From: Candidatus Bathyarchaeia archaeon
GTDB lineage: Archaea; Asgardarchaeota; Heimdallarchaeia; JABLTI01
Assembly (NCBI GenBank): GCA_035528035.1
Contig: DATKZI010000043.1
Location: 27,332-51,331, forward strand
Direction: 5' to 3'
Length of the DNA: 24,000 nt
Below are positions 10,351 to 15,074 of the stretch, in pieces (the stretch's first letter is position 1; each line of letters begins with the position of its first letter). Below the pieces are notes generated by a model that made no database searches, had not been told where the DNA came from, and saw only the letters and a program-made list of their open reading frames with translations. A program made the position numbers and the translations under genes.

Positions 10351-11451
10351 TTGACTCATTGTATACTAATGGTGACATTTATGGTAGCTGTGAAAGCAAT
10401 ATCCTCTGATGAAGTATTTCAAGAATGGGTTAGTAAAGCTGATATCAATACTTTGAAAAAATTCTATGAAAGAAAGAAAGTAGATTTCAAGCGGGATCAC
10501 GTTTCTGCTGTCGAAACGGTTTACAATGTCTCTAAATTTATAGTGATTTATTTTGAGAAAAAAATTCCTGATACATTTACTGGAAACACTGAAGTAAAAG
10601 TAGAAAAAACAACTGTAGATGAATTAGATAGATACAAATTCTATGATTTTAAAAACAGGAGAGTTGATTTTGATCAGTGGAAGGAAAAATCAATTTCCGT
10701 TCCAACCATAAGCAGTTTGCAATCATCTGATTGTCCAAAATGCTATGGAACAGGTAAAACAAAATGCGAAACCTGTGGAGGCACCGTTACAATCAAATGT
10801 GATAAATGTGATGGCAGTGGAAGAATTGGTTGTAGTAGTTGTAAAGGTAATAGGACCTTAATTACAAGTATTGATGTATATGATGCAGAGAACAAAAAAA
10901 CCAAAACGGAGATTAAAATTCCTTGCCCTCAATGTTCACATACAGGAACCATTACATGTACAAAATGCAATGGAGCGAAAATAATCTATTGTAGAAATTG
11001 TACTGGAGGAGCAAATACTTGCAAGGTATGTAAGGGGTATGGCATAATTTACAATTTCAAATATGAACCTGTGCCTTTTATCACAAGTAAAAAGAGAGCC
11101 ATGGTTTTCTATAAAAAAGATGTCGAGAAATTTATTGACAAGAAAGAAGTTGAGCAACTTCTAAATTCTCGAGAGATAGAAGGAATAGCAATTCAAAATC
11201 CAGATGAATTGACTCAAACAAGATTACTACCTGAACTAAATTACTGGACTGCTGAAGCAGATAAAATATGTAATGAAGCGAGGAAAACTTACAAAGATTT
11301 AATGAAGAGCAAACAAATACAAACAAATCAAAAAATCATGGTTTTTCCTGCATTGCAATTACGCTGTAGAAGTGTAAAAGGAAAGAACTTTGAAGTTTTC
11401 GGAATTGGCACATCTGAAAGTTTTGTAGTTTTAGATGATGGTTTCAAATAG
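10351..11451 (+). CDS. Multi-zinc-finger protein with eight CxxC motifs (DnaJ-CR-like CxxCxGxG repeats) flanked by unassigned domains
   Basis: Block 1 is CPKCYGTGKTKCETCGGTVTIKCDKCDGSGRIGCSSCKGN. Block 2 is CPQCSHTGTITCTKCNGAKIIYCRNCTGGANTCKVCKGYG. The track start is TTG 10351; ATG 10369 and ATG 10381 (the latter preceded by ggtga) are alternatives. Confidence 0.8.
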   Translation: MTHCILMVTFMVAVKAISSDEVFQEWVSKADINTLKKFYERKKVDFKRDHVSAVETVYNVSKFIVIYFEKKIPDTFTGNTEVKVEKTTVDELDRYKFYDFKNRRVDFDQWKEKSISVPTISSLQSSDCPKCYGTGKTKCETCGGTVTIKCDKCDGSGRIGCSSCKGNRTLITSIDVYDAENKKTKTEIKIPCPQCSHTGTITCTKCNGAKIIYCRNCTGGANTCKVCKGYGIIYNFKYEPVPFITSKKRAMVFYKKDVEKFIDKKEVEQLLNSREIEGIAIQNPDELTQTRLLPELNYWTAEADKICNEARKTYKDLMKSKQIQTNQKIMVFPALQLRCRSVKGKNFEVFGIGTSESFVVLDDGFK

Positions 11452-11481
11452 AAATCATATTTTATTTACGATAGGATAATA

Positions 11482-11510
11482 AATTGGCTTTCTTTGAAGC
11501 AAAGCCAATT
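11482..11510. terminator. Perfect 10-bp hairpin between convergent genes
   Basis: aattggcttt (11482-11491) pairs with aaagccaatt (11501-11510) across a 9-nt loop, followed by gttttct. It lies between the stops at 11451 (+) and 11552 (-). Confidence 0.4.
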
Positions 11511-11551
11511 GTTTTCTAATTCAAAATATAAAACTGATGCTTATATAAAAC

Positions 11552-12625
11552 TCAAATATTAGAATCCTCGTCTGTTTTACTTTTGAAGACTTTATCCTTG
11601 AGTTCTTCACTTTTCTTGACTATACTGGAATAAATTTTATCTGTTTTTTCATCGAATGATTTTATCAAAGATTTAGATGTTTGACTTAAATTTTCCTTGA
11701 TACGTGAAGTGGCTTTTTTCTCAGGATTAGGCGTTACAGCTTCTATAAAAGTAATAGGAAGAGTATGGACATCACAAGGATAAGATCTATTTGGATTAGA
11801 AGCATAACCCTCATCCTTTAACCAAGTTTTGGCAGAATTATAAGCTTCATCAATTAAGAATTCTGATTTCGAGAAATCATGTGGTCCTACATTTACACAA
11901 TAAGGCGGTGGAATGATTATTAGCTCAACTTTATCTTTGTATAATTGAATATCAGTTGCTAATTGTCTATTAAGAAGAAAGATGAAACTACGTATGAGAA
12001 TTTCCATAACATTTTTTGGTTCTTGATCTGAAGATGGAACACCAATCGGAAAAACAACTATCCGACCAGCACCTAATCTAACAGCTGTAGAGATTGGCGC
12101 ATTGTTAATTATCCCACCATCAACCAATAATCGATCATTCATATGTAATGGAGGAAACACACCCGGAATTCCTGCGCTTGACATTAAAGCTTCTATTGCT
12201 AACCCTTTGTTAAAAACTACCTCTTCGCCACATTTGATATCAGTGCTAATAATATACAAGGGAATTTTAGTTTCTTCAATGCGTGTAAAAGGAAGATGTT
12301 CAGTAATTAATTTACGTAAATTTTTTGGTGAAACTAAGTGTAAACCAGAAGTTGTGAGATTTACTACAGGTGTAACTGGTGAAGGAGGAAAAACATCCCG
12401 CATTTTGATACTACGCCAAATTCGTTCAATAGCATTTACTCCCTCTAAAGTTGGATTATAGGCATACATTGCACCATTTAAACTTCCAACAGACGTACCT
12501 AAGACCATGTCAGCTTGAATATTGTGCTCTACAATAGCCCTTAGAGCACCAACTTCAACAGCGCCTAAACTAGCACCACCTGAGAAAACAAATGCTGTTT
12601 TTGAATTAAATGTATAACCTTCCAT
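11552..12625 (-). CDS. Patatin-like phospholipase
   Basis: Glycine-rich oxyanion motif FSGGASLG (res 14-21), nucleophile elbow G43-T-S45-V-G47, and catalytic Asp in LVD169GG. The Lys/Ser/Glu-rich C-terminal ~70 aa is unassigned. Confidence 0.9.
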   Translation of the reverse strand: MEGYTFNSKTAFVFSGGASLGAVEVGALRAIVEHNIQADMVLGTSVGSLNGAMYAYNPTLEGVNAIERIWRSIKMRDVFPPSPVTPVVNLTTSGLHLVSPKNLRKLITEHLPFTRIEETKIPLYIISTDIKCGEEVVFNKGLAIEALMSSAGIPGVFPPLHMNDRLLVDGGIINNAPISTAVRLGAGRIVVFPIGVPSSDQEPKNVMEILIRSFIFLLNRQLATDIQLYKDKVELIIIPPPYCVNVGPHDFSKSEFLIDEAYNSAKTWLKDEGYASNPNRSYPCDVHTLPITFIEAVTPNPEKKATSRIKENLSQTSKSLIKSFDEKTDKIYSSIVKKSEELKDKVFKSKTDEDSNI

Positions 12626-12816: not shown

Positions 12817-12847
12817 TGGTGGCCGGGAACGGATTTGAACCGCCGAC
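12817..12847 (-). repeat. Orphan copy of the tRNA-Pro 3' end (att-like direct repeat, distal copy)
   Basis: tggtggccgggaacggatttgaaccgccgac matches 14879-14909 at 30 of 31 positions in the same orientation. The single difference (12828 a vs 14890 g) corresponds to tRNA position 65. Confidence 0.85.
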
Positions 12848-12911
12848 AATTAAACTATAATATAATTGTTCTTTAAAAATAATTGAAAGTTAAAGAGCAT
12901 GTCAACAAATA

Positions 12912-13547
12912 TTATACGATGAGTTTATTTTTGTTTTTACTTATTATTTCTAAAATCTCTTGTACTATTTGAACAACTAATGTTGAAGGGTTGCTAGCTA
13001 GAGATAGTAGTTCAACCCCTAAATCGCTATGTTTCTTATTCAATTTAATAGCATTTTTCATAGCATTATTTCTGTTATTAACGAGAATATCAAAATAATC
13101 CTTCGACTTGGTATAATTCAAAATATTTTTGGTTAACTTTTCAAGTAAATCTTTTGTTGAAATTCTTTGGTCATAATAAATATAATGTAATAAATACCAT
13201 AATTCGAAACAGGGATTTGACAAACATAAATTAATGTTATTTTTTTGAGCTAATTTACTAGCGTCTGAAATATTTTGTAAAGTATTCTTATCAGCATCAA
13301 AAACACACCAGACTTGATCTCCATATTGGAAGTCAATACCATATTTTTGTATTTGACTTAAAGCAAATTTCACCAGATTTTTCGGATCAGTGACATTTGT
13401 TTTTGGCGTTAGAATCTCAAGTCCATTATTTCGAGCTCTATATCTTCCAAAATAGATCCTCTCGGTTTTTTGACCCTCGCAAATCAATAAGATTTTGGTG
13501 ATTTGTTTTCGAAGATTAGCTTTTCTGGAAGAATATCCTTTTGCCAT
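12912..13547 (-). CDS. RloB-like protein (Toprim-type acidic pattern), AbiLii-like
   Basis: N-terminal ILLICEGQKTERIYF, VWCVFD84AD86KN and SNPCFELWYLLH are present. The ATG at 13547-13545 directly abuts the upstream TAA at 13550-13548. Confidence 0.85.
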   Translation of the reverse strand: MAKGYSSRKANLRKQITKILLICEGQKTERIYFGRYRARNNGLEILTPKTNVTDPKNLVKFALSQIQKYGIDFQYGDQVWCVFDADKNTLQNISDASKLAQKNNINLCLSNPCFELWYLLHYIYYDQRISTKDLLEKLTKNILNYTKSKDYFDILVNNRNNAMKNAIKLNKKHSDLGVELLSLASNPSTLVVQIVQEILEIISKNKNKLIV

Positions 13548-14783
13548 TTAACCAAACCCATTTTCTTTTATGAAAGGTAAAGCACCATATCTTCCTGCTA
13601 GATATCCTCGCTCAATATCCTTATCCTTTCTGGGACTAAATTCTATTAAGGAATATAGTTCTGTACTACCTTTTTCTTCATTTTTTTCAGTGAACCATAT
13701 TTGATCTCTTCTGAATATTGTTTGATCTAACAAATTTGTATTATGTGTAGTAAATATCAGTTGGGCATTTGTTTTATTTTGAATTTTATTATGAAAGAGA
13801 TTGATTAGAAATAAATTTAATTTATGATGTAATTTTACCTCTAGTTCATCTATAACAAGAATCCGTCCATTTTCTAATGCGTCTAACCATAGACCAATTA
13901 GCGAAAACAACCTCTTCGTTCCCTCAGATTCCTCTGTAAAGTAATCAAAAACTACTCCTTTATGCGAGGTTTTAATATTGATTTCTTCTAATGACAAAGT
14001 TTTTGCTATATTAATAAAACTTTTAATTTCAGGTGGTAAAGATTCTGGGATTTTCTCTAATAACCTTAAATTTACCTCAATGTCTTCTAATGCTAAATCT
14101 GCTTCTGCTAATGCTTTTAATATTAGTTCTTTGTTCTTGGATTCCTTTTCAATAAAAGCAATGGTTGGTCTCTCAGATCCGATGGGTTGATATGGTCCAA
14201 TAAATTGCAATTGATTCTTAAACCAATCAAAGACAGGAAAAACTTCTTGATAATTCTCTTGTGTAGCTTTTGATAAATAGAGAGTATTCTCAAGTGTTCT
14301 TTCAGCTATGAAGTTTTGAATGGTTTTATCTCTAGTAAATTTAAATTCAGTATTTATTCTCTCAAAGAGTAATGCACGTCTGTTATTTTTATACCAATAC
14401 AGTGATTCTTCTAAAACTTTTATGCCATTAAAAGCAATTGTATAAGCATATTTAATCTCATTTTGAATAAAGATAATTTGAAATCTGGTTGGAATTTGTA
14501 AACAAGCTTTGTCTAATTTAAAGGGCTCATATTTTATACCTTGACCTTTTTGATGGTTATGAGAGTTTAATACAAGGGCTTTTAGAAAGTAAAAAGCCAT
14601 CAGAATATTACTTTTACCTGAAGCATTTGCTCCATAAATTACTGCACTTCGAAGTAGATTGTCAGATTTCAAAACAGAAGTGATTAAATTATCTTCCAAA
14701 GATAAATCCTTAGAAGCAATCATACTAAAAGTGACTTTATCTTTTATTGACCGATAATTTTCAATACTAAATTCAATTAACAA
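13548..14783 (-). CDS. AAA_15/AAA_21-type (ABC/SMC-like) ATPase, AbiLi-like
   Basis: N-terminal MLIEFSIENYRSI, Walker A G51ANASGKS58, Walker B-like ILVIDELEVKLHH, and FTTHN are present. The start is TTG with ggcggtg upstream. Confidence 0.9.
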   Translation of the reverse strand: MLIEFSIENYRSIKDKVTFSMIASKDLSLEDNLITSVLKSDNLLRSAVIYGANASGKSNILMAFYFLKALVLNSHNHQKGQGIKYEPFKLDKACLQIPTRFQIIFIQNEIKYAYTIAFNGIKVLEESLYWYKNNRRALLFERINTEFKFTRDKTIQNFIAERTLENTLYLSKATQENYQEVFPVFDWFKNQLQFIGPYQPIGSERPTIAFIEKESKNKELILKALAEADLALEDIEVNLRLLEKIPESLPPEIKSFINIAKTLSLEEINIKTSHKGVVFDYFTEESEGTKRLFSLIGLWLDALENGRILVIDELEVKLHHKLNLFLINLFHNKIQNKTNAQLIFTTHNTNLLDQTIFRRDQIWFTEKNEEKGSTELYSLIEFSPRKDKDIERGYLAGRYGALPFIKENGFG

Positions 14784-14878
14784 ATTAAAACACCGCCTAA
14801 GGACAAATTTTGTGGTTTTTTCACAAAAATTAAGATTAAAATAGTCACTGATACTATTTAAAGATTATGGAAAGAAAG

Positions 14879-14909
14879 TGGTGGCCGGGGACGGATTTGA
14901 ACCGCCGAC
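14879..14909 (-). repeat. Proximal copy of the 31-nt direct repeat, the functional 3' end of tRNA-Pro
   Basis: It covers the encoded CCA, discriminator A, the 3' acceptor strand, the whole T arm and 3 nt of the variable loop. Confidence 0.85.
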
Positions 14910-14917
14910 CACTTAGT

Positions 14918-14960
14918 AATCTGCTGGTGGGACTCATCCCGCTACTATTAGCTTTCCAGT
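14918..14960 (-). other. tRNA intron with canonical hBHBh' splice motif
   Basis: The central 4-bp helix pairs tRNA 32-35 (UUUG) with intron CAGA and includes one G-U. The two 3-nt bulges are G36-G37-A and U-U-A38. The outer helix is intron CUGG/CCAG. Confidence 0.8.
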
Positions 14961-15074
14961 CCCAAACCAAGTATCATACCGTGCTAGACTACCCGGCCTT
15001 CTCTTGTGCTTTGCTAAGCATTCTTTTTTGAGTTTTTTCTGATTTTTGAATCTTTCGTTAGCTTGCTGATAATC

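Follow-up and report, generated by a model that had tools for sequence, protein, structure and literature searches.

The 24,000-nucleotide (nt) stretch of archaeal DNA analysed here (the window; contig DATKZI010000043.1, positions 27,332 to 51,331) carries, at 12912–14783, two adjoining genes that encode an ABC-type ATPase and a small protein of the RloB family. The pair is an ordinary member of AbiL, a candidate antiviral system of two genes with a wide distribution, and its host is a Heimdall-group Asgard archaeon; it is unusual only in forming the lone cargo of a 2-kb integrase-less insert at the end of a tRNA-Pro gene. An AbiL-type (RloA/RloB-type) candidate antiviral module in a Heimdallarchaeial genome, working and arriving as proposed below, is probably the best explanation of the locus. 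The family, its pairing, its defence label and the idea of a split OLD nuclease were all known previously. The novelty implied by an earlier note on this DNA was overstated, since DefenseFinder AbiL matches in Asgard genomes, including a pair of 211 and 407 amino acids (aa) in Gerdarchaeales (within Heimdallarchaeia), are already tabulated in supplementary data (Leao et al. 2024).

Both genes lie on the minus strand and in the same frame. The AbiLi-type ABC ATPase gene (13548–14783) begins with TTG at 14783 and encodes 411 aa; the AbiLii, or RloB-family, gene (12912–13547) encodes 211 aa, a putative Toprim-like metal-dependent nuclease. The TAA of the first (13550–13548) directly abuts the ATG of the second (13547–13545). 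These coordinates, together with the motifs and residue numbers quoted in the earlier note, proved exact when checked by script. Pairing is strict in the family: of 171 loci from genomes and metagenomes, 168 have the ATPase gene immediately 5' of the RloB gene.

Profile searches bear out the family assignment that the note had proposed, an AbiL-like ATPase with an RloB partner. The 411-aa protein matches Pfam AAA_21 (4.4e-35) and AAA_15 (1.4e-11) and the PADLOC model AbiLi PDLC02335 (2.9e-96, 320 bits), with weaker PADLOC matches to AriA (8e-33), PDC-M12A, HEC-01A, mad3 and GajA. The 211-aa protein matches Pfam RloB (PF13707) along the entire profile (1–195 of 195; 2.5e-40, 139.2 bits against a cut-off of 31.5) and PADLOC AbiLii PDLC02337 (2.4e-27); no other PADLOC model matches it at E ≤ 0.1, hence there is no AriB match. 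Because the E-values from the hidden Markov models range from 1e-27 to 1e-96, a chance family match is ruled out. The two components that PADLOC and DefenseFinder look for in AbiL, AbiLi and AbiLii, are thus present, adjacent and co-oriented. An NCBIfam search gave no informative name, and a PDB sequence search with the ATPase returned nothing meaningful.

The host is a Heimdallarchaeial Asgard archaeon. The archaeal origin already recognised in the earlier note is supported because the closest RloB protein (92% identity) comes from a Candidatus Heimdallarchaeota metagenome-assembled genome (MAG; GCA_016927615.1) and because the tRNA-Pro gene beside the pair bears an archaeal-type intron. In that MAG the locus shows synteny with the window and includes patatin, DegV, ThiS-like and adenine glycosylase genes. 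A second Heimdallarchaeota MAG (locus L005, JAUWKS010000024.1) has a pair whose proteins are 78% and 66% identical to those of the window. Relatives at 45–92% identity in Heimdall archaea, Methanosarcinales, Methanotrichaceae and Methanomassiliicoccus make up an archaeal AbiL subclade.

The ATPase carries the defining motifs of ABC-type ATPases, and they are conserved. Located by script, these include Walker A (GANASGKS, residues 51–58, with G51, K57 and S58), the signature E285-S-x-G-T289, Walker B D312-E313 within ILVIDELEVKLHH (308–320), H319, Q341, and the H-loop histidine H347 within FTTHN (344–348). Across 110 non-identical homologues the motif residues are kept at 98–100%, S58 (90%) being the exception; G51, G56, K57, S286, G288, D312, E313, H319 and Q341 reach 100% and H347 99%. 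Outside these motifs, a C-terminal block, Y394-x-x-G397-R-Y-G400-A-x-P403 (within residues 392–411; 13548–13610), is 86–100% conserved in the same homologues; it is a candidate contact with the RloB partner.

Judged by conservation, the TTG at 14783 is the genuine ATPase start, because the N-terminus MLIEFSIENYRSI is kept across the 110 homologues and the GGTG lying 8 nt 5' of the TTG is invariant in four aligned Heimdall sequences. This GGTG is part of a Shine–Dalgarno-like element, GGCGGTG (14791–14797, minus strand; 8 nt before the start codon). The automatic gene caller used on the source metagenome contigs chose a later ATG (391 aa), dropping the conserved first 20 residues.

The RloB family is large, and its acidic residues are strongly conserved. 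A profile search returned 13,899 cluster representatives at 50% identity (E ≤ 1e-3); among the best 150 of these, nearly all are stand-alone proteins of ~160–245 aa, with one exception of 334 aa. In the 211-aa protein the family blocks, again placed by script, are LLICEGQKTERIYF (residues 20–33), VWCVFDADKN (79–88) and SNPCFELWYLLH (110–121), and the acidic residues of interest are E24, D84 and D86. In 85 diverse members D84, W117 and A162 are invariant, and E24, G25, T28, E29, D86, S110, N111, P112, F114, E115 and H121 are at least 90% conserved.

The predicted structure of the RloB protein is compatible with a Toprim-like nuclease. The AlphaFold2 (AF2) model (predicted local distance difference test, pLDDT, 90; predicted TM score, pTM, 0.86) has a core of beta(17–23), alpha, beta(43–46), alpha, beta(78–84), alpha, beta(106–111) and alpha, followed by a helical domain. 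The conserved E24 comes after beta-1 and D84-x-D86 at the end of beta-3, which are the places expected of the Toprim glutamate and DxD motif. E24, E29, D84, D86 and E115 would constitute a Toprim-like acidic site, and the topology suggests that they cluster into a metal site. The distance from the glutamate to DxD is 60 residues in the RloB protein and 55 in P2 Old; hhalign places LLICEGQKTE on LLVEGKTE of P2 Old, and a greedier alignment adds FDAD on ADCD in the same register, at probabilities of 0.4–2.4% that are not significant. Weak matches to Pfam OLD-like_TOPRIM and Toprim occur in 2 of 57 RloB relatives, and a homologue search toward an OLD-Toprim profile yielded only 5 near-identical fragments. 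The sole significant structural match in Foldseek is an RloB-like phage protein in a viral library (2.7e-10, TM 0.72).

An ATPase-plus-Toprim view of AbiL has already been published (Burman 2024, PMC11464382). A later review groups AbiL with PARIS as an ABC ATPase plus TOPRIM and superposes predicted AbiLii on an OLD nuclease, with 123 of 206 residues aligned (FEMS review 2026, PMC13064643). The split-OLD suggestion of the earlier note is plausible, and the idea itself is in print. Its three acidic residues are conserved, at positions where beta-1 and beta-3 end; neither Foldseek nor hhalign gives a significant Toprim or OLD match. The Toprim assignment is consistent with the data, and the fold is not demonstrated in this analysis.

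As an antiviral module, the pair might work as follows. The ABC/Rad50-like ATPase (AAA_15/21) would probably oligomerise and act as both infection sensor and effector regulator, and the modelled N-terminal beta-alpha-beta-alpha core of the RloB protein would probably be the effector, a metal-dependent nuclease. If PARIS, OLD and Gabija are a guide, the ATPase may restrain the nuclease; a virus-derived trigger would lead to ATP-dependent release or activation, and the activated nuclease would cut RNA (e.g. tRNA) or DNA and so halt virus production, possibly with an abortive outcome. Translation across the abutting stop and start codons would supply the two proteins in a fixed proportion. Expression would come from a promoter travelling with the genes, probably controlled via a conserved palindrome at the transcription start. 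As for its arrival, a recombinase acting in trans would presumably have inserted the module, as an integrase-less cassette of 2.06 kb, at the 3' end of tRNA-Pro(UGG).

Among characterised systems, PARIS (the ABC ATPase AriA plus the Toprim nuclease AriB) is by analogy the most likely mechanistic template, with a sensor ATPase, a released nuclease and tRNA cleavage. The window pair resembles it in splitting an AAA_15/21-family ATPase, which matches the AriA model at 8e-33, from a separate small putative Toprim effector. It differs in that the effector is RloB and not the DUF4435/OLD-type AriB; AbiLii and AriB have no sequence similarity and superpose poorly in structure (FEMS review, PMC13064643). 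OLD (P2 Old, class 1) and Gabija GajA (class 2) share the ATPase family and have a similar EGxxE–DxD spacing, but they fuse ATPase and Toprim in one chain, whereas here a stop codon splits the two open reading frames (ORFs).

The AbiL of Lactococcus lactis has the same order, ATPase first and RloB-type partner second, and both PADLOC models match the window pair. Unlike it, the window pair has an archaeal host, belongs to an archaeal subclade with its own TTGTG-N7-CACAA palindrome, and sits in a chromosomal tRNA-Pro cassette rather than on a plasmid. Among AbiL systems, only the lactococcal one has a reported phage-resistance phenotype. RloA and RloB are restriction-linked ORFs in type I restriction-modification loci of Campylobacter jejuni, and they are the source of the Pfam RloB name. 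The 211-aa protein is a clear member of that Pfam family, and a 63%-identical relative stands beside hsdM, hsdS and hsdR; in the window, by contrast, there is no restriction-modification system and the pair is alone.

The context of related pairs is mobile and variable, and it supports a role in defence. Besides the type I restriction-modification system, the 63%-identical pair adjoins a Shedu-type SduA_C gene, and a further relative has Cas4-like, HNH and integrase genes nearby. Klebsiella plasmids of 5.25 kb have such pairs as cargo, and others are found on prophages of Klebsiella and Lactococcus and on 37 viral contigs; one Lactococcus prophage is annotated for abortive phage resistance. 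Lactococcal AbiL itself confers phage resistance (PMC13064643).

Several points weigh against the defence reading and the nuclease mechanism attached to it. Foldseek searches of the PDB with the full RloB model and with its 113-residue core gave no match at E ≤ 1e-3, only generic Rossmann-like three-layer alpha/beta folds; hhalign profile comparisons of RloB with P2 Old reach no significance; and PDB sequence searches with RloB profiles were empty. For lactococcal AbiL, the trigger, the target and the mechanism are not known (PMC13064643). No experiment was found for this pair or for any archaeal AbiL, in agreement with the earlier note, which knew of no functional test in an archaeal host. 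The window has ~30% G+C throughout, with no break in base composition at the pair, so that composition gives the cassette no foreign mark. The neighbours in this genome are housekeeping-type genes and not a defence island.

The tRNA-Pro(UGG) gene, which encodes its CCA, occupies 14879–14998 on the minus strand and contains a 43-nt intron (14960–14918). Rfam RF00005 matches 14998–14882 (47.3 bits), and ARAGORN with introns allowed reports tRNA-Pro(tgg) with the intron at 38/39. Default ARAGORN misses the gene because of the intron, and its verdict of no tRNA here is overturned by the other two results. In a related MAG the tRNA-Pro gene is interrupted at the same position by an intron of 31 nt.

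The cassette is bounded by att-like direct repeats derived from this tRNA. The left copy (14879–14909, minus strand) is the 31-nt 3' end of the gene, comprising the T-arm, the acceptor 3' strand and CCA, and represents the attL side. The right copy (12817–12847, minus strand), on the attR side, is an orphan tRNA-Pro 3' fragment identical to the left at 30 of 31 positions; it is the sole other match to the tRNA 3' end in the window at up to 4 mismatches. Target-derived direct repeats thus stand at both ends, as in tRNA-targeting elements. The earlier note had called the cassette tRNA-flanked, which is accurate for one side, where the tRNA gene is intact, and not for the other, where there is a 31-nt copy of its 3' end and no tRNA. 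It had also called the pair the sole cargo, and the two AbiL genes are indeed the only genes between the CCA ends.

From end to end the cassette (12817–14878, minus strand; 2,062 bp, equal to the repeat spacing of 2062 nt) consists of a promoter, a palindrome, the two genes, a 64-nt tail and the tRNA fragment. No Phage_integrase or transposase match was found among ORFs of at least 90 aa in the window. The cassette does not look like that of an integron: an integrase was found neither in the window nor in the examined ORFs of L005, and the boundaries are tRNA 3' fragments, which do not look like attC-type imperfect palindromes. At an empty site the predicted junction is ...CCCCGGCCACCA then TTTACTTTTCTATTATC; for an excised circle it is ...TTAATTGTCGGCGGTTCAAATCCGTYCCCGGCCACCA then CTTTCTTTCCATAATC.

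The cassette appears to carry its own expression signals. Almost directly after the CCA lies the block TTCCATAATCTTTAAATA, which includes a TATA-box-like TTTAAATA (14855–14862, minus strand); by position and sequence it is a putative cassette promoter. The palindrome TTTTGTG-AAAAAAC-CACAAAA (14808–14828, minus strand) follows the TATA box at a distance of ~25 nt and precedes the start codon by 42 nt. Its core, TTGTG-N7-CACAA, has a single match in 24 kb against 0.06 expected. The TTCCATAATCTTTAAATA block and the palindrome, like the GGTG, are invariant in the four aligned Heimdall sequences.

The palindrome is also a trait of the archaeal clade. TTTGTG-N7-CACAAA lies upstream of the ATPase gene, between TATA box and start codon, in L004, L005, L008, L034, L084–L092, L106, L210 and L211; these archaeal-clade loci span several phyla and come from Heimdall archaea and from Methanosarcinales, Methanomassiliicoccus and unbinned contigs, the upstream DNA of the last three being otherwise unlike. 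Bacterial relatives have different palindromes at the corresponding place. The archaeal palindrome lies where transcription would be expected to begin; it is likely an operator, possibly autoregulatory, or may form a hairpin in the 5' untranslated region.

The cassette is common to three Heimdall lineages. In a close relative (L085/L086), whose host proteins are 83–88% identical to those of the window and whose AbiL proteins are 91–92% identical, the repeats have the same 2,062-nt spacing, the left repeat is a decayed tRNA remnant and the DNA upstream is unrelated. The homologous unit in L005 measures 2122 bp. The flanking DegV proteins of the window and of L005 share 33% identity, and their genes are possibly not orthologous. 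Because the AbiL identities (78% and 66%) are far above this value, the comparison speaks for horizontal transfer of the cassette, which would have reached the same tRNA in lineages far apart, subject to the caveat on DegV orthology.

In L005 the AbiL unit belongs to an array. At L005:4200–9063 (JAUWKS010000024.1) a tRNA-Pro(UGG) gene is followed by five copies of its 3' ~32 nt, at spacings of 306, 2122, 603, 847 and 849 nt. The five units are, in order, empty; the AbiL pair; a gene for an ArsR/Csa3-like helix-turn-helix protein; a gene for a 220-aa membrane protein; and a pair encoding 60 and 174 aa; a DegV gene comes next. No integrase is present in any of these five mini-cassettes. The three distal fragments have compensatory T-arm changes, GCGGA...TCCGC against CCGGA...TCCGG in the resident tRNA. 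Because of these T-stem differences, they appear to derive from another tRNA-Pro allele, as expected if each unit brought its own att copy.

A 2,136-bp contig, L084, carries an L005-like pair that is 77% identical to the window's. It runs from the tRNA interior straight into the AbiL cassette and does not have the 306-bp unit of L005; the content of tRNA-adjacent cassettes therefore varies between close relatives. The idea that such ~2-kb homologue contigs are excised circles was rejected, given that L084 spans from the tRNA interior to just before the next repeat and L210 is without tRNA fragments.

Direct traces of mobility were also sought. An empty-site variant of the same strain was looked for in contigs with the flanking patatin or 70-aa gene, and all long contigs carry the cassette. 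Among three independent short-read Logan contigs of the window's strain (L215, L216, L217), one ends exactly at the tRNA-Pro CCA (~14879) and two end 3 nt into the intron (~14958); these ends resemble assembly-graph branch points at a junction polymorphic between strains, which is suggestive only. RloB relatives on viral contigs are only distant (at most 33% over the whole protein), and the tRNA-Pro fragment is absent from those contigs. The search identified neither a virus nor a plasmid as donor of the cassette.

These arrangements permit a tentative proposal, which we think has a modest chance of being right: the tRNA-Pro(UGG) gene of Heimdallarchaeia could be a cassette-capture site, to which promoter-carrying integrase-less units of 0.3–2.1 kb, each ending in a ~32-nt tRNA fragment, are added serially by a trans recombinase. 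The AbiL pair would be one such unit, exchanged between distant lineages. A duller alternative is that the units are decayed remnants of larger integrated elements. Elements that are mobilised in cis and have no integrase of their own are comparable to the Heimdall mini-cassettes. For tycheposons, tRNA islands are described in which incomplete target-tRNA copies stand between the units and more recent insertions lie closest to the tRNA (tycheposon preprint). The Heimdall units are likewise separated only by partial target-tRNA copies; unlike those islands, they are very small (0.3–2.1 kb, with 0–2 genes), none has a recombinase, and the host is an Asgard archaeon.

Long target duplications also surround AbiL pairs far outside the Heimdall group. 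Among 169 loci in which the pair is complete and both flanks are present, significant direct repeats 2.06–3.5 kb apart bracket the pair in 20; leaving out duplicate loci and one tandem duplication reduces these to ~15 independent cases. At the E-value cut-off applied, chance alone would give ~0.2 repeat-bracketed loci. The repeats, 23–327 nt long, duplicate tRNA genes or gene 3' ends in unrelated lineages. They correspond to the 5' 52 nt of tRNA-Glu in L026, to 73 nt of tRNA-Arg(CCG) in L065, to the 3' end of a uvrA-like gene in L139/L143 and to that of a clpB-like gene in L061 (both of the latter identified by reading the translation, not by family search), and to further gene ends elsewhere. 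Bacterial pairs with 43–327-nt repeats 2.1–3.5 kb apart, with no space for an integrase, are seen in L026, L065, L061, L139/L143, L018, L074, L128, L149, L161, L170, L206 and L039. As a sequence pattern this matches the insertion with long target duplication reported for restriction-modification genes (Furuta 2010, PMC2853133).

The same repeats bear on what the pair is for. It might mainly be a selfish addiction module, in which the nuclease is a toxin and the ATPase its antidote, the cassette is stabilised by the killing of cells that lose it, and defence is a side effect. Strict pairing and translational coupling suit this idea, as do the promoter palindrome, of a kind seen in autoregulated toxin-antitoxin operons, and the carriage of the pair on tiny plasmids. 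The ~15 independent loci with long target duplications show the signature of selfish restriction-modification systems (Furuta et al., PMC2853133), and PARIS behaves as a toxin-antitoxin pair (PMC13064643). On the other hand, lactococcal AbiL was isolated through its phage-resistance phenotype (PMC13064643), and defence and addiction are not mutually exclusive. We regard mainly selfish addiction as unlikely, and prefer the antiviral module.

The duplications could also be read as the work of the pair itself: the ATPase and the Toprim-like nuclease would be the cassette's own mobility machinery, homing or transposition-like, whose widely staggered cuts create the long target duplications. This would suit integrase-less units of 2.06–3.5 kb bounded by 23–327-nt target duplications in unrelated lineages, and a 24-kb window in which no integrase or transposase was found. 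However, ~90% of loci are without such repeats. The Heimdall array moreover includes AbiL-free cassettes bounded by the same tRNA fragments, and because they share these bounds the recombination function would lie outside the pair; a tyrosine recombinase in trans suits the att-like structure. To our knowledge there is no precedent for OLD or Toprim nucleases as integrases, which also counts against self-mobility, and we consider it very improbable. Least credible of all, and scarcely worth retaining beside the antiviral module, is that the two genes form a housekeeping DNA-repair couple of the RecF/RecR type, in which RecF is the ABC-like ATPase and RecR the Toprim protein. In its favour are a weak resemblance of the P-loop region to RecF and SMC_N and the housekeeping-type neighbours in the window. 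Against it, the RecF match covers ~23 residues at 18.6 bits against a cut-off of 172, the distribution is patchy, with pairs mobile on plasmids, prophages and restriction-modification islands, the location is between att-like repeats, and the cassette is far more conserved between lineages than the flanking host gene.

Within the neighbourhood, two further observations concern the patatin gene. Together with the neighbouring 366-aa gene, whose product has DnaJ-type CXXCXGXG zinc-finger repeats, it is inverted in order and orientation relative to the AbiL cassette and DegV when the window (10351–12625) is compared with L085:2574–4950. The window patatin also matches PADLOC phospholipase effector models weakly (7e-9).

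In the literature searched, including the searched passages of Wu 2022 and Valentin-Alvarado 2024 on Asgard mobile elements, no description was found of an integrase-less tRNA-Pro mini-cassette array in Heimdallarchaeia, of the conserved palindrome of the archaeal AbiL clade, or of recurrent long target duplications around AbiL pairs. The array, the archaeal palindrome and the recurrent duplications are leads, not established findings. In general, minimal cassettes bounded by att sites or by duplications may be a common vehicle of AbiL pairs.

AbiL/RloB pairs are very common, so that the pair described here adds little as a defence system. As a compact, promoter-carrying pair from the archaeal lineage closest to eukaryotes, it is a clean candidate in which AbiL function could first be examined outside bacteria. 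The cassette, the five-unit array and the recurrent duplications point to a simple route by which small defence modules that have no recombinase of their own could move. If the capture site were real, it would amount to an integron-like shuffling of defence genes in the archaeal relatives of eukaryotes.

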